Shown: one piece after another, positions 10,629 to 52,121 of the stretch
How positions within the stretch are numbered: position 1 is the first letter of the stretch
How the letters are laid out: each line of letters begins with the position of its first letter
The notes under the pieces: model-generated
Told to the model about the DNA's origin: nothing
Seen by the model: the letters and a program-made list of their open reading frames with translations, nothing else
The model's database searches: none
Sequence record: ON212266.1
Direction: 5' to 3' (one strand)
Length of the DNA: 64,000 bases
Origin: Enterobacter phage fGh-Ecl02
Position numbers and translations under genes: made by a program

Positions 10629-11686
10629 TGAAATTTCTTGACGAGCAATTTATCAACAACGTGTCGCCCCGCCTTGACAAGTTCAAGTGGGAGCGCGTTG
10701 GTACTGTCGCAAACTTCCGTTGTCCCCTGTGTGGTGACTCCACGAAGTCTGCTAACAAGCGCCGTGGATACTTCTTCTATGATCGGGATCATGACTGCTT
10801 CCGGTTCAAGTGCCACAACTGCAACCAGATGAATGGCTGGTCATTTGAGTTCTGGCTGAAGAAGTTCGATGAGCGCCTCTCAACAGAGTACAACATGGAG
10901 AAGTTCCGCCTGCTGGGTGATACGTCGGGCAGACCACTTCCTTCCCTGAAGCCGTTGCCAAAGCTGACACAGACCGCCCGTATTGGCTCAGTGGCGGCAA
11001 AACGCGACGAGAGCCTCCTCGGCAATATGCTACGGCTTGATCTACTACCGCCTGACCATAAGGCTCGGCAGTACGTACAGTGGCGGGGGCTGCCGGAGAG
11101 CACTTGGTCCTTACTGTACTACACACAGCGCTTTCGTGAAGACCTGAAGCTGTTTGAAACAGACCCCGAAAAGCAACTGAAGATCCCTGATGACGAGCGC
11201 CTGGTAATTCCATTCTGGACACAAGACGGGCGGATGAAGGTCGTTCAGGGGCGTGCATTCGACAAGAACGCGACCCTGCGATACGCGACAGTCAAGCCCA
11301 AGGACGAGGACACCAAAGTCTATGGGGAAGACCGGGTGAACATTCACAAGACCAAGCTGGTGGTGGAAGGTCCGATTGATAGCCTCTTCCTGCCGAATTG
11401 TATGGCGTCAGCAGATGCCGACTTGTTGAGCGTGAAGGGCGACATCTATATCCCTGATAATCAGTACCGGAACCCGCAGGTCTGTGACGGTATTCAGAAG
11501 ATGATAGATAAAGGTGTCAAGGTCGTGCTGTTCCCACCGGACGTTCCGTGGAAGGATATCAACGACATGGTCATGCCATCAAAGGGCAACATGCCGATAC
11601 AAGACCTCCTGAAGCTGATCGCCAAGAACGTCTACCAGGGTATGGCCGCTTCATTGCAATTCGCTGAACTGAGGAAAGTGAAATGA
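10628..11686 (+). CDS. 61: DNA primase gp61
   Basis: N-terminal zinc ribbon CPLCGDS...KRRGYFFYDRDHDCFRFKCHNC followed by a Toprim-like region; 352 aa, similar in size to T4 gp61. Confidence 0.8.
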   Translation: MKFLDEQFINNVSPRLDKFKWERVGTVANFRCPLCGDSTKSANKRRGYFFYDRDHDCFRFKCHNCNQMNGWSFEFWLKKFDERLSTEYNMEKFRLLGDTSGRPLPSLKPLPKLTQTARIGSVAAKRDESLLGNMLRLDLLPPDHKARQYVQWRGLPESTWSLLYYTQRFREDLKLFETDPEKQLKIPDDERLVIPFWTQDGRMKVVQGRAFDKNATLRYATVKPKDEDTKVYGEDRVNIHKTKLVVEGPIDSLFLPNCMASADADLLSVKGDIYIPDNQYRNPQVCDGIQKMIDKGVKVVLFPPDVPWKDINDMVMPSKGNMPIQDLLKLIAKNVYQGMAASLQFAELRKVK

Positions 11687-18303: not shown

Positions 18304-18376
18304 TCTATAATCCCTGCGCTTATACTTCCCAGTAATTCATTGGCATTCGCCACAAATTGAAAGCGGGAACTATATC

Positions 18377-29356: not shown

Positions 29357-29424
29357 GTTCTCACTACACAGTCAGAACAACAATATGCCGCGGATACGGT
29401 CTTAATAACGAAAGGGTTTTTATT

Positions 29425-30261
29425 ATGTCATATATTCTTCATGTGGATTCTGGAACCAAAATTGAAATTGAAGGCAAAGACGTTGCTGCTATTCAGGCTG
29501 AAATCAAAGAAGCAGGTCTGATCATCGGAAACGTTACCCTGCGCCGTATGGTTGAAGGTGTTCTTCAGGCTGCCAACGGCTTCGAACTGATTGAAGGTCT
29601 GAGCGCCGAAGAGAAGGAAGAAACCCAGCAGGCTCTGGCGCAAGCCCAAGAGCAAGCCCAAGCTGAAGTATCCCTGAAAGTCGCTGAAACCGTCGATGCT
29701 GAAGCACCGATCTCTGCCGATGCATGTGAAGCCCCAGTGTCCGACGCCCCGGTAGACGCGGTTGAAGATGCAGTCAACGCGGCGCTGGAAGAAGGCAATC
29801 AGCCGTCCGACGCGAAAATCGGTTCCTTAGCGTCTTCTATGCTGAAAGAAGCATCGAAGGGTAAGACCCTGACCCCGCAGGCGGCGCTGGTAGAGCGTAA
29901 ACGCCGTCACACCAAACGTGAGGAAATGGTTGACTTGGCTCGCGCTTCTAATCACGGTCCGGTCTTGGCGGCGATTGAAGCTGGTGTTGTTCCCGGCGTG
30001 TTCCTGAGCTACGTGAACCCAGACATGCGTTGGTTCCAGTTCCCGGTCACCGAACTGGCTAACCCTGAAAACCTTCACGCCCGCACCAATACGTATGTCG
30101 ACGTTGCGCCTATCGTTTCCGGTGGCTGGGGCTTCAGTCTGTACGTGAACGGCAAGTCCTTCACCAAACGTCAGAAGATCAAAGAGTCTGATGCTGAGTC
30201 TCTGGTTAAGGCGATCAATGAATGGCTTCCACAGGCTCTGGCTGAAGCGAAAGCTGTGTAA
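29425..30261 (+). CDS. Highly expressed early protein of unknown function with an acidic Ala/Glu-rich linker (278 aa)
   Basis: Strong promoter, extreme major-codon bias, acidic low-complexity segment. Confidence 0.6.
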   Translation: MSYILHVDSGTKIEIEGKDVAAIQAEIKEAGLIIGNVTLRRMVEGVLQAANGFELIEGLSAEEKEETQQALAQAQEQAQAEVSLKVAETVDAEAPISADACEAPVSDAPVDAVEDAVNAALEEGNQPSDAKIGSLASSMLKEASKGKTLTPQAALVERKRRHTKREEMVDLARASNHGPVLAAIEAGVVPGVFLSYVNPDMRWFQFPVTELANPENLHARTNTYVDVAPIVSGGWGFSLYVNGKSFTKRQKIKESDAESLVKAINEWLPQALAEAKAV

Positions 30262-30274
30262 ATTTAAGTTCAGA

Positions 30275-30312
30275 AACTGTTCAATAGATGAAGGGGTTGC
30301 TATAATAGCAGC
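30275..30312 (+). promoter_or_regulatory. GTTCAAT box followed by TATAATAGCAGC, a -10-like element shared with the ligase upstream region
   Basis: 12-mer TATAATAGCAGC identical at 30301 and 39767. Confidence 0.4.
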
Positions 30313-30336
30313 TCCTTTTGTTTATCGGAGCAGTTT

Positions 30337-30996
30337 ATGTCCTACTCCCTGAAGGGGCTGATGAAGCGCCCCGTCCACACATTCTTTAAACCACCCGTCG
30401 TAAAGGGGATCTACCCAGCACGAGGGCAAATCTACTACGTCAAAGGCTCCAATGGTAGCGGTAAATCCACTGTGCCGTCTCAGCTGGCGGAGAGGGATCC
30501 TCAGGCGTATGTCGTGACCCATAACGGCAAGGTCATGCTGACTGTCTGTCCTTCGTTCAACGTGGTGTGTATCGGTAAATATGACAAGTCGAAGTCCAAG
30601 GGGGTTGATTCCCTGAAGGACACTGAGCAGATGTTGTTCGCGTTGTCTATTGCTGACCAACCAGAATACTTGAAATATGATGTGATTTTCGAAGGTATCA
30701 TTCCATCAACATTATTGAGTTCTTGGATCCCCCGCCTGACACGCCCACCACGTGAATTGGTTGTGCTCTTTATGGACACTCCCCTTGAAACGTGTATCTC
30801 CCGCGTTAAATCACGTAACGGTGGTGTGGACTTCAATGAAGGTCTGGTGGTCGAGAAGTGGGAGAGAGTTCATGACCATCGTCAACGACATAAAGACTTG
30901 TTCCCTACGGTGGCTGCGGGTATGATGAAGTCTCACGGCCTAACGGTAGACCAGGCTGTGATGGCATTCCTCTGTCGTGATTTTGGGAGTATCTGA
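30337..30996 (+). CDS. P-loop kinase (Walker A GSNGSGKST); candidate 5-hydroxymethyl-pyrimidine DNA kinase (5-HMUDK-like)
   Basis: Walker A; 219 aa; sits immediately upstream of, and ATGA-coupled to, the hydroxymethylase gene; T4 has no counterpart at this position. Confidence 0.5.
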   Translation: MSYSLKGLMKRPVHTFFKPPVVKGIYPARGQIYYVKGSNGSGKSTVPSQLAERDPQAYVVTHNGKVMLTVCPSFNVVCIGKYDKSKSKGVDSLKDTEQMLFALSIADQPEYLKYDVIFEGIIPSTLLSSWIPRLTRPPRELVVLFMDTPLETCISRVKSRNGGVDFNEGLVVEKWERVHDHRQRHKDLFPTVAAGMMKSHGLTVDQAVMAFLCRDFGSI

Positions 30997-32042
30997 TGGA
31001 AATCAAATCAATTAACAATAATGACATGCTGAAGCAGGCTGTCTTGGCTATCCGTGAATTCGGGATCGAATCTGATCCTGGTAATGCTGAAATCAATACT
31101 GATAGCACCCGCTTCCTTGATGGTGTGACGATCACTGTTTCCGATATTCGTGACCGCTGGCTCTCCGTTGAAGGTCGCAACTCATCGGCTATCGCTGCCA
31201 TCGGCGAGACCTTCTGGGTGTTGTCAGGTCGCAACGACATAAAGTTCCTGTCACGTGTATTGCCTCGCGCTGCTAACTTTTCGGATGATGGGGTAACATG
31301 GCGAGCTGCTTATGGTCCGCGTCTGTACGCCCATGGCCAGCTGGATAGCGTTATCAACCGCCTGCGCAAGAACCCAAACACTCGCCAGGCGTACCTCACT
31401 ATTTATGATCCGGCTTTGGATTCGGATGCTGGTCTGGCGAAGTTCAGCGAGAGCGGCGAAGCAAAGACTAAGGACATGGTGTGTAACCTGGCTCTGTTGT
31501 TCGCCATCGTTGAAGGTCGTCTGAACCTGACGGTCATCAATCGCTCACAGGATGTTCTGTGGGGGATGAGTTCAATTAACTTCATTGAGTTCTCTATTCT
31601 TCAGGAAGTGATTGCTCGGGTGCTGGATGTTGATGTCGGTCAGTACAAGCTATTCTCTAACAATCTTCATTACTACAACAATGAAGTCAGCCAGAAGCAG
31701 CTGGGCAAGATCACGAAGGACACCAAAGTAGAAGCTGGGTTCATCAACTCCATGATTCACTTCACGAACGTGACCAACCAGAACCATATCCGCAATCTGT
31801 TCACTGGTGTGCTTCATCACTGTGATATCGGTAGCCCGTGGGAAACTGTGGTCGCTCACCTGAAGGAATACGATGCGGATCGCGGTCTGATTTTGCAGAT
31901 GGCATACTGCCTGCACTGCAAATTGAATAACAAGCTCATTAACCTGGACCTGATTCAGGATCATGGCTTGAACACCGCGCTCACCCATTCCCCGGTTGAC
32001 CGCAAGATCATTGATCCTAAGTTCCTGGAAGGTGTAGTATGA
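30996..32042 (+). CDS. Thymidylate-synthase-fold pyrimidine hydroxymethylase (gp42-like dCMP/dUMP hydroxymethylase)
   Basis: DMVCNLALLFAIVEGRLNLTVINRSQDVLWG aligns with T4 gp42 DFMCTNTVQYLIRDKKINAVVNMRSNDVVFG (Cys nucleophile, RSxD); 348 aa. Confidence 0.75.
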   Translation: MEIKSINNNDMLKQAVLAIREFGIESDPGNAEINTDSTRFLDGVTITVSDIRDRWLSVEGRNSSAIAAIGETFWVLSGRNDIKFLSRVLPRAANFSDDGVTWRAAYGPRLYAHGQLDSVINRLRKNPNTRQAYLTIYDPALDSDAGLAKFSESGEAKTKDMVCNLALLFAIVEGRLNLTVINRSQDVLWGMSSINFIEFSILQEVIARVLDVDVGQYKLFSNNLHYYNNEVSQKQLGKITKDTKVEAGFINSMIHFTNVTNQNHIRNLFTGVLHHCDIGSPWETVVAHLKEYDADRGLILQMAYCLHCKLNNKLINLDLIQDHGLNTALTHSPVDRKIIDPKFLEGVV

Positions 32043-32608
32043 TGTACCCAAATCTTGAATTCTTTACGGGGCGCAAGCGCTCCGGTAAGGACTTCTGTTT
32101 GGAGTCCCTGATCAGTTACCACCACTTACAGGGTGATATGGACATACAGCGCCTTTCTTTCTCTGATGAACTGCGCCGTGTAGCCAACTACATCTACCCA
32201 TGGCTCCCAGCGGAGGTAGAGGATGCCGTGAAGGACGTTCCTTACGTGCACCCTGATAACCCCAAGGGCTTAACTCCACGGCAGATCTGGCTTCATCTAG
32301 GCAGCGATACGGGCTTGCGTTACGTACAACCTGATCTGTTCCTGGCATTCTTCAAGCGCTTCCAGCTTCCTCTGGTAGAGCAGAACCCCCACGTCCATTA
32401 TATCGTGAGCGATCTGCGTACCCCTCAGGAATATGAATGGGCGCTGAGTACGAAATGTCCTATCACCCGTATTTCAAAGGCCGACCGTGCTGGTATCATA
32501 GAGGACGATATAGAGGCTTTCATTGACCAAATGAAAGTGGACTACGAATTCCTCAATCCATTTGATGGTTGGGAACCGTTCGTTAAATTCTACGGAGAAC
32601 GTAAATGA
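32039..32608 (+). CDS. 1: Deoxynucleoside monophosphate kinase (gp1-like)
   Basis: FFTGRKRSGKDFCLESLI matches T4 gp1 FLSGVKRSGKDTTADFI; 189 aa. Confidence 0.7.
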   Translation: MMYPNLEFFTGRKRSGKDFCLESLISYHHLQGDMDIQRLSFSDELRRVANYIYPWLPAEVEDAVKDVPYVHPDNPKGLTPRQIWLHLGSDTGLRYVQPDLFLAFFKRFQLPLVEQNPHVHYIVSDLRTPQEYEWALSTKCPITRISKADRAGIIEDDIEAFIDQMKVDYEFLNPFDGWEPFVKFYGERK

Positions 32609-33159
32609 TCACAGCAGGGCATATCCAAAGCCTGCTCGAACTCCAAAAGGCCACCAACGTGGCCTACTTTGGGGAAGAGTGGAAGAATGTATGGAGTCAG
32701 AATGCAGTCATCAACTCTATCTATCGTGAGTGGGCAGAGTTCCTTGATGAAACCACCCGTGACTGGAAGGTCTATGGCAACGACATCGGGTTTGACCATA
32801 CGAACGCAGTTTATGAACTGGTGGACGTGGTACACTTCATGTTGTGCTTCATCCTTGTGGACCGCACCAAAGGTGAGATCGAAGAAGAATTTGAAGTCCT
32901 TAGTAATCGCGAATTCACCCCATCTGCTTTGGGTGTTGTAGGGCATCGTAATGTTACGTACCGCCTTGGGCAATTCATGAACGACCCTTGCGTTGAGACT
33001 CTCATGTTCTTCCTGTCGTCTGCGTGTTCTTATATGGAGATCGACATTGAGACTTACATACTGGCACACAAACGCAAGAACGATCGCAATCGTCTGCGTG
33101 CTTCTGGTGGCGCGGATTACGACAAGTCCGCAGAAACCCCTCTGACCTTGGAGTTCTAA
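32605..33159 (+). CDS. 56: dNTP pyrophosphatase gp56-like (dCTPase/dUTPase, MazG-type all-alpha fold)
   Basis: ELVDVVHFMLCFILVD matches T4 gp56 ELVDIFHFVLNMFVGL. Confidence 0.65.
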   Translation: MITAGHIQSLLELQKATNVAYFGEEWKNVWSQNAVINSIYREWAEFLDETTRDWKVYGNDIGFDHTNAVYELVDVVHFMLCFILVDRTKGEIEEEFEVLSNREFTPSALGVVGHRNVTYRLGQFMNDPCVETLMFFLSSACSYMEIDIETYILAHKRKNDRNRLRASGGADYDKSAETPLTLEF

Positions 33160-33704
33160 TGTTTACAGTCGTCGTTTCATACCATGCGGAGAACGCTGCT
33201 CAGGCATCCTCCAAATTCGCCGAGCACATCATCGGCGGCGGCCATAATGTATTCCTTACTGAATACAACAGGCCTGTTAAACCGGGCGACGGTCTTTCGG
33301 CGACTGTTACGCATAAGATCGCCAGCGAGCAACCAGAGTCTCTGTTCAGAATGATCGAAGAATATGCCGGTGGTGGTGGCACCAAGATACCAGATGAACT
33401 GGTAGACGTCTATTTTGAAGGCTCGATCTATTACATCCACGCTATGCCAAAGGATATAACCATTGAACAGATGATGTATATCCTGAATATAGCACTGAAC
33501 ACTGCGTGCATCAACCGCACGAACTACAACAATCTGCGCAATATGTACCTAACCGACCGGCATAATGACGCATCGTCACTTGTTGAGACAATGTCCCTGA
33601 AGAGCATCCAAGAGGCGGTTAACATTTTGTCCCAGAAGGTTATGGGTGTAGACTTACTAACGACGATTAACAACAAAGAGGAAGTGAAATGGCCAGTTCA
33701 TTAA
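33159..33704 (+). CDS. Hypothetical protein (181 aa)
   Basis: ATGA-type coupling to the upstream gene. Confidence 0.45.
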   Translation: MFTVVVSYHAENAAQASSKFAEHIIGGGHNVFLTEYNRPVKPGDGLSATVTHKIASEQPESLFRMIEEYAGGGGTKIPDELVDVYFEGSIYYIHAMPKDITIEQMMYILNIALNTACINRTNYNNLRNMYLTDRHNDASSLVETMSLKSIQEAVNILSQKVMGVDLLTTINNKEEVKWPVH

Positions 33705-34774
33705 TGGACCGCATGCTGAAGGTTGCTAAGAAACACGATGACCAGGCTTCAGTGCTGTCCCAATCAGACGCTCTGGAACCGTCTATCATCTGTTCTACTG
33801 GTATTCCCCTGATCGACATCGCATGGTCTGGGCGTATTGACGGCGGCCTGATCTCCGGTATCAAGATGATGGTGGGTGATTCCCGTACCTTCAAAACGAT
33901 GTTCGGTCTGGTGGACGTCAAGGCGTACATGGACAAGTTCCCTGATGCTATCTGCGTCTTTGCGGACTCAGAAAAGGGTGCCAACGCTGATTACTGGACC
34001 TCTATGGGCATTGACATGGACCGCGTCCTGTACGTACCGATCGACAACGTTGAACAGACCAAGATCCGCTTGCTGCAGATCCTACAGGAAGTCAAGAAAG
34101 GCGACCATGTTATAATCTTCATCGACTCTATCAGCCAACTTCCCTCCACCAAGGAAGTTGAAGATGCGATCAAAGGGAACGACACTCAAGACATGACCCG
34201 CGCCCGTGCCCTCAACAGCTTCTGGCGTGTCATGACTCCTGAAATCAACAGCAAAAATCTCGTGTGTGTTTGGATCAACTCCTATTACGATGAGATCGGC
34301 AACCAGTATGCCGAGCCAAACATCAAAGGCGGCAAGCAGGGCTTCTTATCCTCCAACTTGATCTGGTTTATCACCCGTTCTCAGGTGAAGGAAGACAAAG
34401 ATCTGCTGGGCTGGAACTTCAACATAAGCATCATGAAAGGTCGCCATGTCAAAGAGAAAGCCAAGCTCCCTGTGACGGTACTGTACAACGGCGGCATTGA
34501 TCGCTGGAGCGGCCTGCTTGAGATCGCTCGTGCTCTGGGTTATGTTGATATGCCGTCTTCCGGCTGGTATGTGCGTACAGCCAAGGGTGGTTTCGATCCT
34601 GAGAAGGAAAAGAAATATCAGAAGCGTCAGATGGGTGATGATTTCTGGTATCCGCTGCTGGAGAATGTCAACTTCGCCGATGACGTGAAGAAGATGTTCG
34701 GTGTTTCTAACGGTACTGTTATGCCTGCGAACATGCTGGAGCAAATGGACCATGTTATTAACACAAGCGAATAA
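33689..34774 (+). CDS. uvsX: UvsX RecA-like recombinase
   Basis: RecA core Walker A GDSRTFKT and Walker B VIIFIDSIS; 361 aa. Confidence 0.85.
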   Translation: MASSLMDRMLKVAKKHDDQASVLSQSDALEPSIICSTGIPLIDIAWSGRIDGGLISGIKMMVGDSRTFKTMFGLVDVKAYMDKFPDAICVFADSEKGANADYWTSMGIDMDRVLYVPIDNVEQTKIRLLQILQEVKKGDHVIIFIDSISQLPSTKEVEDAIKGNDTQDMTRARALNSFWRVMTPEINSKNLVCVWINSYYDEIGNQYAEPNIKGGKQGFLSSNLIWFITRSQVKEDKDLLGWNFNISIMKGRHVKEKAKLPVTVLYNGGIDRWSGLLEIARALGYVDMPSSGWYVRTAKGGFDPEKEKKYQKRQMGDDFWYPLLENVNFADDVKKMFGVSNGTVMPANMLEQMDHVINTSE

Positions 34775-39687: not shown

Positions 39688-39758
39688 CTGAGGACTACGC
39701 ACTGACCTCATTATCAGCCAGGCAAAATCCCGCACCCGCCAATAATCTATTGAAGTCC

Positions 39759-39791
39759 CCAGGGTTATAATAGCAGCACATATAACCCTGG
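39759..39791 (+). promoter_or_regulatory. Perfect 11 bp inverted repeat CCAGGGTTATA-N11-TATAACCCTGG containing TATAATAGCAGC, 10 nt upstream of the ligase ATG
   Basis: Seen in sequence; the longest perfect hairpin noticed in the window. Confidence 0.45.
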
Positions 39792-39800
39792 AGACACCGC

Positions 39801-41231
39801 ATGATCCCTATCCTTGAAACAGTCCACCGACTTCGCGAAACCAAAGGCAGCAATGCGAAGAAAGCCGTGCTGACCGAAGCATTCAAGAACAACCCAGACT
39901 TGGCAGACTTCCTGCAGTATGTCTATGACCCAATGACGTCGTTCTATCGGACTGAGTTGAAGCTCAGCGCGTACCCTCGCATGCTCGTCCGTGAGAAGAC
40001 TGATGACATCAGCGAAGTCTATGACGTCCTCGACCAGATGGCACAGCGCCTTGTCGGTGGCCAAAAGGCTGATACCCTGTTGGCCTCTGTCGCCCTGAAG
40101 ATGGATCCCCAATACCACGAACTCATTCAGATGATCCTAGACCGTGATATCAAGGCGGGTATCGCTGAGAAGGGCATCAACGCTGCATTCAACGCCGCCG
40201 GAGGCACTGGACGCCTGATCAACATCCTTCCATATCATCGTTATGACAACATGACGATTGACCTGCTGAAGAAGATGGACTTCAAGCGCGGCGTCTACAG
40301 CCAGCTGAAGTCAGACGGTATGTTCGCCAACATCATATGTCGGTACAATAAAGATCCTGAGATTCGCTCTCGCTCCGGTTCCCTTATCGCAGGTGGTTCG
40401 GTTGATAACCTTTCACTGGTGTTCAAAGACCTGATCTACGATGCGGGGATTGGTGAGAGTGTGTTCCATGGTGAACTTCTCGTTGTTGACCTCAAGTCGA
40501 ATACCATCCTGCCTCGTGCTGTCGGTAACGGTAAACTCAACAGCGTGATTCAGACAGGAGAACCCCTGGAAGATCGTTATCGGGTGATCTACCGGGTGTG
40601 GGATGTTATCCCGTACGACAACTGGTTCAACGCCCAGCGCGTGGACACCCCGTATGAGCGCCGCTTCGATATCATCCAGCAACTGTTTGATGAAGACGAC
40701 GGTCTGGTTCAGGTTCAAGAAACCCGCGTTGTTCACTCATTTGCCGAAGCCGTCGACCACTTCAAAGACGCGCTGGCTCGCAAAGAAGAAGGCACGATAT
40801 GTAAGGCCGCAGACATGCCGTGGGAAGATGGTACTTCTTCTGAAGGTCTGAAGCTGAAGATGGAGGTTGAGTGTGACCTTGAAATCGTGGGATTCAACGA
40901 GGCCGACAAGAAAGGCAAACACGCCAAGACTTTTGGCTCACTGATTTGTAAAACTTCCGACAGCCTGCTTGTTGTTGGTGTATCAGGGATCTCAGATGAG
41001 CTGAGACGCCATATGTGGGAGAACCAGGGCGACTACATTGGCAAGATCGCCGCAGTGCTCTCTAATGGCGTACAGGATAAGACAGATGATGCGATGAAGT
41101 CTTTGTTCCTACCTCGCCTTGTAGAAGTCCGCATTGACAAGAAAGTGGCCAACACACTGGATGAAGTCTATGCGATACAGAAAGCGTACATTGAAAACAT
41201 CGCATTCCTGTTGGAGAAGGATAATGGGTGA
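39801..41231 (+). CDS. 30: ATP-dependent DNA ligase gp30
   Basis: Adenylation motif I around SQLKSDGMFANI, corresponding to T4 AQLKADGARCF; 476 aa against T4's 487 aa. Confidence 0.8.
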   Translation: MIPILETVHRLRETKGSNAKKAVLTEAFKNNPDLADFLQYVYDPMTSFYRTELKLSAYPRMLVREKTDDISEVYDVLDQMAQRLVGGQKADTLLASVALKMDPQYHELIQMILDRDIKAGIAEKGINAAFNAAGGTGRLINILPYHRYDNMTIDLLKKMDFKRGVYSQLKSDGMFANIICRYNKDPEIRSRSGSLIAGGSVDNLSLVFKDLIYDAGIGESVFHGELLVVDLKSNTILPRAVGNGKLNSVIQTGEPLEDRYRVIYRVWDVIPYDNWFNAQRVDTPYERRFDIIQQLFDEDDGLVQVQETRVVHSFAEAVDHFKDALARKEEGTICKAADMPWEDGTSSEGLKLKMEVECDLEIVGFNEADKKGKHAKTFGSLICKTSDSLLVVGVSGISDELRRHMWENQGDYIGKIAAVLSNGVQDKTDDAMKSLFLPRLVEVRIDKKVANTLDEVYAIQKAYIENIAFLLEKDNG

Positions 41232-48764: not shown

Positions 48765-49274
48765 TTATTTGTCAGGGTTCACTAAAACAGGGGTGGATAC
48801 CAGTTCGCCGTTCTTCACAGAATGCTGGACTACAACAAACTGATCGACCATTCGATATACTTCAATTCCAGCAGCCAGCATGTCAATAATGCCGTCTATG
48901 ATACGATATGGTCGGTCATAGAACACTTTAGCGATCTTGCCACTGTCGATAATACGACGGGTGCACTCTGGGCATGGACTATGAGTGACAAACATCACCA
49001 GGCCACAACAGTCTTCGGTGTGCTGGGGGAGTTTGCTCAGAGCATTCTCCTCGGCGTGAATAACACCCACCGATACCAGTTGACCGTCTACTTCCTTCTC
49101 ACAGACATTAGGAGCGCCAGGAGCAGTCCCGTTCCAACCGATAGACAGGGGCTGGTCAACACGCGGGTCAACGATAACACAGCCGACCTTCAGGCGCTGG
49201 GCATAGCTGGACAGAGCGTATGCATGAGCCGAGCGCATATGCGCAAATAACATACGGGGTTTGATAGCCATCAC
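48765..49274 (-). CDS. cd: dCMP deaminase (cytidine/deoxycytidylate deaminase zinc-binding family)
   Basis: HAEENAL and PCPECTRRI zinc-ligand motifs; 169 aa. Confidence 0.8.
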   Translation of the reverse strand: MMAIKPRMLFAHMRSAHAYALSSYAQRLKVGCVIVDPRVDQPLSIGWNGTAPGAPNVCEKEVDGQLVSVGVIHAEENALSKLPQHTEDCCGLVMFVTHSPCPECTRRIIDSGKIAKVFYDRPYRIIDGIIDMLAAGIEVYRMVDQFVVVQHSVKNGELVSTPVLVNPDK

Positions 49275-50307: not shown

Positions 50308-50864
50308 ATTTCAATCCCCAGATTGGTGTATAACAACTCAGACATGGTTACAGGGCGCTTGAATTGTTCCCAACTACAGTTCAGGTATTCACGTTCTTCA
50401 CGCATTTCACTGTGAAGATGACCATGGATATTATACGCCCAGCGGTCTAATTGATAAGGAACGTGAGTGGTCAACACACGACCAACCGGAGTATCACGCT
50501 CATACATCGCACCAAAGGAGCTAATCCATCCCTCTTGATACAGCTGCATCAACATCTTGAAGCTGTCATGGTTGCCTTGCGCCACCCTGATGATAAAGTT
50601 CGGACGCCAGTCATCGGGAACTGGGCGGCGCTTGAACTCATCAATATTCCTCTTGGCACCCTCGCGCATCAGGCGAATGAACCCCTCAGCCCCGATGAAG
50701 CAGATGTCCCCAGCCAGTTCAAGGACGTCTCGGGACTTCAGCCCCTGAAAGATACTGTCGATAACTGCAGCATCATGTGCCTCTTGGGTATCGAACCCAC
50801 GGGGATTAAAGATCTTCTTGTGCCCAAGGTGGGTGTCGCCCAGATACTTTACAATTCCTGCCAT
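50304..50864 (-). CDS. Calcineurin-like metallophosphoesterase
   Basis: Motifs GDTHLGH, GNHD, GHLH. Confidence 0.65.
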
Positions 50865-51205
50865 TATGGTTTCCTCAACCATTCTAAAATCGGTACGTTC
50901 ACAAACCCTTTATGCCAGCGATGGGGTTTATGGCCTCTGTTGTGTTCGAGCAAACACGTGTCCGGTGGGACACTGAAGTGGATGCCGTCGATGTCGTAGT
51001 AATGCCCATCAATCAGAGTATACACATGACCTTCGGTCTGACTGTAATGGATCTCTGCTCGAGGGTACACGTGCTTCAACAACAGAGCGACCTGGTAACA
51101 CTTCCCGTTCTTCCCCACGTACTCGACATCCACCTGTTGTGGAAACACATCTTTGACAAGGTTTATCAATCTCGTGATGTCGTTCACCACAACAGACGGT
51201 TTCAT
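50864..51205 (-). CDS. Hypothetical His-rich protein (113 aa)
   Basis: Compact operon spacing. Confidence 0.4.
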
Positions 51206-51891
51206 TGTTTCCCCTCAAACACGGAAAGTTCATGACGGTGGCGGACACAAGCAGGGCAATCACAGTTCTTTTTCAGAACGGGATATTCACACCAGGTCAT
51301 CAGGCCATAGATCGGTTTCAGGGCTTCGTAGAACCATGTCTTCTTCATGCTGGCGAGAGGGAAGAGAACGGTGATCTCATGTCCGTCTTTGGCCAACATG
51401 TTATAACCCTCCACGATCTTGTTGAAGGCTGGAATCCAGTGGAGAGCGTCGTCTCCGTTGACGTATGCCATCACATAAGTTCTTGGCAGTCCTCGATCAA
51501 AATGGCCGCCCACGAATTGAGTGTTCACTAACCACACAGGGGCTTGAGCCAGACAAGGCCGGAACTCACCAGACTGGATGCTCATTTTGCTGATCGGGGT
51601 TTCCCTGTGATGCCAATGAGTGTTCAACCTCGGTGAATTGGTGGTCACCCACTCCCTGATCTTCTTGCGCGCCCAGTTCTCACGCTTCACCTTGAAGGAG
51701 TTGTTCTCCAGTTCGCAGTAGATCGTGTGAACTTCGTACCCGTGAGCCAACAGCCAGAATAGCATGTACGTGCTGTCCACGCCGCCTGACCAGAACAGAG
51801 TAACCTTCTCCCCGTTGTACGCAAGAGGGTCTTTGTTGTTTGTCATAACATCGCGAACGAAATCACGGTCGTTTATTGATACGTTGATCAT
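51202..51891 (-). CDS. queC: QueC-like PP-loop ATPase (7-cyano-7-deazaguanine synthase family)
   Basis: PP-loop SGGVDS and C-terminal zinc cluster C-x9-C-x-C-x2-C (WCEYPVLKKNCDCPAC), compared with QueC C-x8-C-x2-C-x2-C; 229 aa. Confidence 0.6.
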   Translation of the reverse strand: MINVSINDRDFVRDVMTNNKDPLAYNGEKVTLFWSGGVDSTYMLFWLLAHGYEVHTIYCELENNSFKVKRENWARKKIREWVTTNSPRLNTHWHHRETPISKMSIQSGEFRPCLAQAPVWLVNTQFVGGHFDRGLPRTYVMAYVNGDDALHWIPAFNKIVEGYNMLAKDGHEITVLFPLASMKKTWFYEALKPIYGLMTWCEYPVLKKNCDCPACVRHRHELSVFEGKQ

Positions 51892-52121
51892 GGTTTAATC
51901 AATCCGTTGGCATTGATAATGTAAGACAGGGATTCTTCTGTAGACTCGCGCAAAACACGATAGAACTCATCGGAACTTACAGGGTGACCGTCAAGCATAT
52001 ATGTGTTGCATACAGTGCCATGGGTGTCCTGGGCGTAATGGTGGTAGAACTCAATCCCTTCGATATTGAAGTTCTTTCTGTAACTTCTTGCTGTAGTCAT
52101 AACAGTTTCCAGAGGATTCAT
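51888..52121 (-). CDS. Hypothetical protein (77 aa)
   Basis: ATGA coupling. Confidence 0.4.
   Translation of the reverse strand: MNPLETVMTTARSYRKNFNIEGIEFYHHYAQDTHGTVCNTYMLDGHPVSSDEFYRVLRESTEESLSYIINANGLIKP

Follow-up and report, generated by a model that had tools for sequence, protein, structure and literature searches.

A probable 5-hydroxymethyl-2'-deoxyuridine DNA kinase heads the hydroxymethylase operon of Enterobacter phage fGh-Ecl02

Within a 64,000-nucleotide stretch of DNA from Enterobacter phage fGh-Ecl02 (sequence record ON212266.1; hereafter, the window), the open reading frame at positions 30337–30996 on the plus strand (ATG start, 219 aa, containing IYYVKGSNGSGKSTVPS) is very probably the gene for a small P-loop kinase, the 5-hydroxymethyl-2'-deoxyuridine DNA kinase (5-HMUDK); from its sequence relationships we put the probability at about 95%. 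The original prediction had named this P-loop protein of 219 residues a candidate 5-hydroxymethylpyrimidine DNA kinase, and the reading is upheld by a match to the corresponding Pfam family, by 88% identity and synteny to gp67 of phage ViI and by the published assay of that protein. Family membership, orthology, synteny and intact motifs are all observed; that this protein and this phage behave as ViI gp67 and ViI do is what we infer by analogy. The kinase is a direct orthologue within an experimentally characterised family, and both its identity and its pathway are already known for this family of phages.

Searches of Pfam matched the protein to PF18748 (HMUDK_HMUD1, ‘5-hmdU DNA kinase’) with an E-value of 1.1e-108; the score was 361.6 bits where the gathering cut-off is 27, and residues 14–208 align to positions 1–195 of the 196 in the profile. 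Three other families—AAA_33, ABC_tran and Zeta_toxin—were matched below their cut-offs. By tblastn, the gene was found in 401 phage records, mostly from Ackermannviridae together with M6-like and SP10-like phages.

ViI gp67 (YP_004327432; also Vi01_061c or orf00067, in NC_015296) and the window kinase are 88% identical and 94% similar over 219 residues with no gaps, and none of their 27 substitutions falls at a family-invariant position. The two genes are syntenic, both lying directly upstream of a hydroxymethylase gene resembling thymidylate synthase, and they share an N-terminal extension and a leader element, although ViI belongs to the Cvivirinae and the window phage to the subfamily Aglimvirinae. 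Closer relatives were found at the nucleotide level: positions 29400–33200 are 96.6–98.5% identical to nine Ackermannviridae phage records, eight from Escherichia and one from Salmonella (ZQ1, RPN242, YX22, LHE287, PC3, PH4, A221, vB_CECAV_050 and AV101); identity is about 91% with Shigella phage Ag3 (Agtrevirus) and 89% with Dickeya Limestonevirus phages. The kinase is 100% identical to the translation from Escherichia phage A221 (Ackermannviridae, subfamily Aglimvirinae), and the A221 segments compared align with most of window positions 18342–64000 at 92–98.5% identity.

To locate conserved residues, the window protein was aligned with seven homologues: ViI gp67, the orthologues from Serratia phage 2050H1, Erwinia phage Bue1 and Vibrio phage K364, and ViI gp243, M6 gp54 and PhiW-14 gp37. 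Half of the eight aligned sequences (ViI gp67, ViI gp243, M6 gp54 and PhiW-14 gp37) are biochemically validated 5-HMUDKs. Ten columns were invariant—G40, G42, K43 and T45 of Walker A, then P55, G80, Y82, G89, G120 and R156—and all ten residues, unchanged among validated kinases and remoter orthologues alike, are kept by the window kinase. The Walker A loop or P-loop, GSNGSGKST, could be read directly from the sequence (residues 37–45; 30445–30471, plus strand). By analogy with the general architecture of P-loop kinases, YDVIFEG (residues 114–120; 30676–30696, plus strand) probably forms a Walker-B-like strand end, with G120 invariant and an acidic residue at position 119 in all but one of the aligned sequences. 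The segment SRVKSRNGG (residues 155–163; 30799–30825, plus strand) is a candidate lid, in which R156 is invariant and R160 and N161 are nearly so. An N-terminal extension of ~30 aa is found on gp67-type proteins and is absent from M6 gp54 and ViI gp243. A single-sequence AlphaFold2 model of the kinase was unusable (mean pLDDT 34, pTM 0.26), and a sequence search of the PDB with the kinase returned no solved 5-HMUDK, yielding P-loop-level noise alone (the CFTR NBD, E about 0.009).

The 5-HMUDK family was first predicted by Aravind and co-workers (cited in PMC5889632 and PMC8989533). Five of its members—M6 gp54, ViI gp67, ViI gp243, PhiW-14 gp37 and SP10 gp186—convert 5-hmdU in DNA to 5-phosphomethyl-dU (PMC8989533). 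This product (5-PmdU) was seen as a 418-u nucleotide with ADP as the by-product (Lee et al., 2021; PMC8989533), and radiolabelled ATP had its gamma-phosphate moved onto DNA, with a single phosphate added (PMC8989533). Lysates containing ViI gp67, gp160, gp226, gp243 and gp247 rebuild 5-(2-aminoethoxy)methyl-dU (Lee et al., 2018; PMC5889632).

ViI gp243 (YP_004327565), the second 5-HMUDK paralogue in Ackermannviridae, belongs to the same family, has the same demonstrated reaction and shares Walker A, G120 and R156 with the window kinase. Yet it is only 23% identical, lacks the N-terminal extension, carries some 90 additional residues at its C-terminus, and is encoded near the DNA polymerase and the gp247 transferase, whereas the window kinase lies in a nucleotide-metabolism operon. 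Pseudomonas phage M6 gp54 and Delftia phage PhiW-14 gp37 likewise share the Pfam family, the invariant motif residues and the reaction, but are 32% and 21% identical to the window kinase, respectively, and have different gene neighbourhoods; the chemistry downstream also differs, M6 using glycine to make 5-NedU and PhiW-14 using putrescine to make putT. As the closest chemical precedent, Lee et al. cite the hydroxymethylpyrimidine kinase ThiD (PMC8989533). ThiD also phosphorylates a pyrimidine 5-hydroxymethyl group, but does so on the free base, whereas 5-HMUDK acts within DNA, and our analysis detected no sequence relationship between ThiD and the window kinase. ThiD has a ribokinase-type fold and no P-loop.

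That the kinase is built into the hydroxymethylase operon, as originally proposed, is plain from the gene arrangement: it is the first cistron in a tightly packed gene block, and the last base of its TGA stop is also the first base of the ATG that opens the following reading frame (30996). This next gene (30996–32042, plus strand) encodes a divergent enzyme of the thymidylate synthase (TS) family, presumed to be the dUMP 5-hydroxymethylase, with matches to Pfam Thymidylat_synt (E 1e-15) and PHROG 3676 (E 7e-183) and 77% identity to ViI thyA/gp66. Its score falls far under every NCBIfam thymidylate synthase equivalog cut-off (57.8 vs 327 bits) and so fits the divergent dUMP hydroxymethylase of the literature. 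Its segments VCNLALLF and NRSQDVLWGMSSINF match what we take, by reference to E. coli TS, to be the TS motifs (the catalytic Cys and Arg-Ser-x-Asp...Asn), and the retained Asn would fit uracil rather than cytosine as substrate. The gene is known in the literature as dU hmt, and 5-HMUDK co-associates with the dUMP hydroxymethyltransferase (PMC5889632).

Further along the block lie genes for a T4 gp1-like dNMP kinase, presumed to convert 5-hmdUMP to 5-hmdUDP (32039–32608, plus strand; PHROG 139, E 1.2e-47), and for a dUTPase_2/NTP pyrophosphohydrolase, presumed to supply dUMP and/or sanitise the nucleotide pool (32605–33159, plus strand; PF08761, E 6.7e-9; PHROG 173, E 2.7e-40). After these come a 181-aa Phage ACT-like domain protein (33159–33704, plus strand; PF24021, E 3e-77) and the next overlapping or abutting open reading frame of the block (33689–34774). 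Lying between the dUTPase_2 gene and uvsX, the ACT-like gene is translationally coupled, and ViI has it at the same position. The presence of a ligand-binding domain of ACT type in a nucleotide-metabolism operon hints at a regulatory role. Elsewhere in the window, on the minus strand, a dCMP deaminase-family gene (48765–49274; Pfam dCMP_cyt_deam_1, E 4e-16), whose A221 counterpart is annotated as dCMP deaminase, is presumed to supply dUMP to the hydroxymethylase, a role taken from PMC8989533.

Gene order downstream of gp67 in ViI—thyA, dnk, dUTPase, a small ACT-like ORF and uvsX—is identical to that downstream of the window kinase, and upstream both genomes carry the same unknown genes, a DNA end protector and a ssDNA-binding protein. 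This order recurs in Agtrevirus, Limestonevirus, Taipeivirus and Miltonvirus, and a core order (kinase, thyA, then one gene before the dUTPase) is also found in Nezavisimistyvirus and a Vibrio phage. It had been suggested that two different kinases flanking one hydroxymethylase are the hallmark of such pathways. The arrangement itself is conserved in Ackermannviridae, but the published hallmark is another one, namely a 5-HMUDK gene with dUMP hydroxymethylase and aGPT-Pplase genes (PMC5889632, PMC8989533).

Its place among nucleotide-metabolism genes could also suggest that the window protein is a nucleotide-level kinase, acting on thymidylate or 5-hmdUMP in the free nucleotide pool. A weak match to PHROG 761, ‘thymidylate kinase’ (E 2.3e-6, 28.5 bits), and the label ‘putative thymidylate kinase’ in several Limestonevirus and Shigella phage records point the same way. 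We nevertheless judge this very unlikely: no thymidylate kinase or adenylate kinase family in Pfam was matched at E ≤ 0.1, vs 361 bits to the 5-HMUDK family; the orthologue ViI gp67 acts on polymeric DNA (PMC8989533); and two genes downstream there already lies a gene for a dedicated gp1-like dNMP kinase. To that enzyme, as the original prediction had claimed, the window kinase shows no detectable similarity (BLASTP best E 1.9).

The subthreshold Pfam matches could instead point to a polynucleotide 5'-kinase (PNK) or a Zeta-toxin-like kinase, acting on DNA or RNA ends or on a sugar nucleotide. AAA_33 was matched at E 4.8e-4 (20.9 bits, cut-off 27) and Zeta_toxin at E 0.036 (13.9 bits, cut-off 22.3), and PHROG 505, a PNK family, at E 0.0076. 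All of these fall under curated cut-offs and reflect only the shared P-loop kinase fold, and the PF18748 match is about 100 orders of magnitude stronger, so that an activity of this kind seems extremely improbable. The original prediction had set assignment to the thymidylate, adenylate or polynucleotide kinase families against its own reading; in Pfam neither of the first two was found at E ≤ 0.1, and the PNK-like and Zeta-toxin matches remained below threshold. A third reading, as a terminase small subunit (the label of the best PHROG match, phrog_800, E 1e-67, and of ViI gp67, Ag3 gp060, M6 gp54 and PhiW-14 gp37 in RefSeq) or as a baseplate hub protein (the name of the homologue in the Det7 record), is scarcely credible, because the terminase label also sits on the proven kinases M6 gp54 and PhiW-14 gp37 and is thus a propagated error, because a distinct small terminase of gp16-like type adjoins the large terminase in both ViI and A221, and because the window protein matches no terminase family in Pfam and has a canonical Walker A loop; the terminase reading is refuted by the biochemistry of family members.

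With the protein taken as a 5-HMUDK, a pathway in two stages can be proposed. Before replication, dUMP would be supplied by the dCMP deaminase and the dUTPase_2 enzyme, converted to 5-hmdUMP by the TS homologue and to 5-hmdUDP by the gp1-like dNMP kinase, and the triphosphate (5-hmdUTP) would be made by the host NDP kinase; phage DNA polymerase would then put 5-hmdU in place of part of the thymidine. This supply route, including the roles of dNMP kinase and dCMP deaminase, is summarised in PMC8989533. After replication, the kinase would bind the polymer and transfer the ATP gamma-phosphate to the 5-CH2OH group, giving 5-phosphomethyl-dU, whose phosphate would serve as the leaving group and be displaced with serine by a serine:DNA transferase (ViI gp247 type). 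A PLP decarboxylase (ViI gp226 type) would then yield 5-(2-aminoethoxy)methyl-dU (5-NeOmdU), which would shield the genome from host nucleases.

Of the other ViI proteins concerned, gp160 is aGPT-Pplase1 and gp243 the second kinase paralogue. Homologues of gp160, gp226, gp243 and gp247 were not found by tblastn within the 64-kb window; A221 carries all four at 82–90% identity, outside the span that the window covers. A221 being ~98% identical to the window, this genome too probably carries genes for the transferase and the decarboxylase. To our knowledge, DNA modification has been chemically determined for Kuttervirus (ViI, CBA120) and not for Aglimvirinae. Modification genes are conserved across Ackermannviridae, and the Aglimvirinae modification is inferred from that conservation alone (review PMC11721090). 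A further feature of A221, beyond the window and close to its second 5-HMUDK paralogue, concerns the DNA polymerase (A221 segment 33836–37300). The record gives this polymerase two CDSs, and its alignment to ViI PolA falls into two parts, aa 1–473 and 474–997, with about 470 nt between them, which points to a split gene or an intervening sequence.

Ahead of the kinase gene is a structured leader (30262–30336, plus strand), which contains a TCAATAGA box (30281–30288), an extended -10 element, TGcTATAAT (30298–30306), a hairpin core (30290–30318) followed by a T-run, and a Shine-Dalgarno (SD) sequence, GGAG (30327–30330), 6 nt ahead of the ATG and paired in the lower stem. The predicted minimum free energy (MFE) of this leader RNA is -30.9 kcal/mol (z -6.6). 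In the RefSeq record for Ag3, the same spot is annotated as a putative extended -10 signal. The original prediction held that a promoter-like element is shared with DNA ligase, and the sharing is confirmed: the window has exactly two copies of the 12-mer TATAATAGCAGC, at positions 30301 and 39766, where about 0.08 occurrences would be expected by chance, and one of 100 shuffles gave two copies. The copy at 30301 is in addition part of a 13-pair hairpin, where it occupies the loop and the 3' arm; a T-run follows, and the structure scores as terminator-like. A scan for the sigma-70 consensus did not list the TATAAT at 30301, there being no acceptable -35 hexamer, and the same bases were listed as terminator-like.

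The second copy (39766–39777) ends 24 nt ahead of the ATG at 39801 of an open reading frame (39801–41231, 476 aa) whose counterpart in phage A221 is annotated as DNA ligase. In this ligase leader (39745–39800, plus strand), the box TCTATTGA (39747–39754) is followed after 12 nt by TATAATAGCAGC, and the element sits inside a hairpin, CCAGGGTTATA...TATAACCCTGG, whose 3' arm overlaps the SD sequence (leader RNA MFE -21.0 kcal/mol, z -5.6). Both leaders thus have a palindromic TCWATWGA box, 12 nt and then TATAATAGCAGC, with the ATG 30–31 nt past TATAAT. Each leader folds into an unusually stable hairpin, with the -10 element placed in the loop or 5' arm and the ribosome-binding-site GGAG in the 3' arm. 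The pattern TCWATWGA-N9-14-TATAAT has two sites in the window, these two leaders and no other; in the 105 kb of ViI examined, it likewise occurs only at the leaders of the same two genes, at 10922 and 196 of the ViI segment, both on the minus strand. Pairing in the kinase hairpin is kept in the Serratia, Erwinia and Vibrio phage relatives, with double changes in six of the 20 predicted pairs.

It is possible, although we lean against it, that the kinase operon and the ligase gene share a dedicated regulatory device, extending from Aglimvirinae to Kuttervirus and made up of the box, a hairpin-embedded promoter and a hidden SD sequence, which would act as a timing switch like those of T4 genes e and soc. 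Read-through transcripts from the upstream gene would be terminated or have their SD sequence hidden and be translationally silent, while transcripts begun at the internal promoter would be translatable. The leader arrangement resembles the classic T4 gene e arrangement. If such a switch does exist, synthesis of this 5-HMUDK would be tied to a specific phase of infection, apart from the second paralogue near the polymerase. This conserved leader architecture, shared with the ligase gene, is the only mildly new item to come from the analysis.

Three further loci were noted on the minus strand of the window. A 229-aa PP-loop ATPase with an SGGVDS motif (51202–51891) has a weak, N-terminal-only Pfam match to QueC (E 1e-6); most Kuttervirus genomes carry a version about 63% identical to it, which RefSeq names ‘QueC-like’. 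Together with a small open reading frame (51888–52121), this gene lies in a ~900-bp segment missing from the otherwise ~98%-identical A221. Immediately downstream is a gene for a 113-aa protein (50864–51205) matching PF24591, ‘Phage YunG-like protein’ (E 1e-42).

Public records often give the kinase gene a wrong name, and in A221 its annotated start is wrong too. Besides the terminase label, the gene is recorded as ‘baseplate hub’, ‘putative thymidylate kinase’ or ‘hypothetical protein’. The A221 CDS (UTQ72654.1) is given a GTG start corresponding to window position 30472 (residue V46), 45 codons too far along, so that it spans the equivalent of 30472–30996 and the whole Walker A loop is deleted. 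The ATG at 30337 is supported as the start by the SD sequence and by an N-terminus, MSYSLKGL, that is conserved in ViI, Ag3 and Klebsiella phage 0507-KN2-1. Identification of the kinase raises no new biological question; its main value is one of annotation quality, a well-characterised DNA-base kinase being mislabelled in most public records. Given the right label, the gene would mark its phage as bearing hypermodified thymidine, which would affect sequencing, restriction mapping and the expected resistance to host nucleases.
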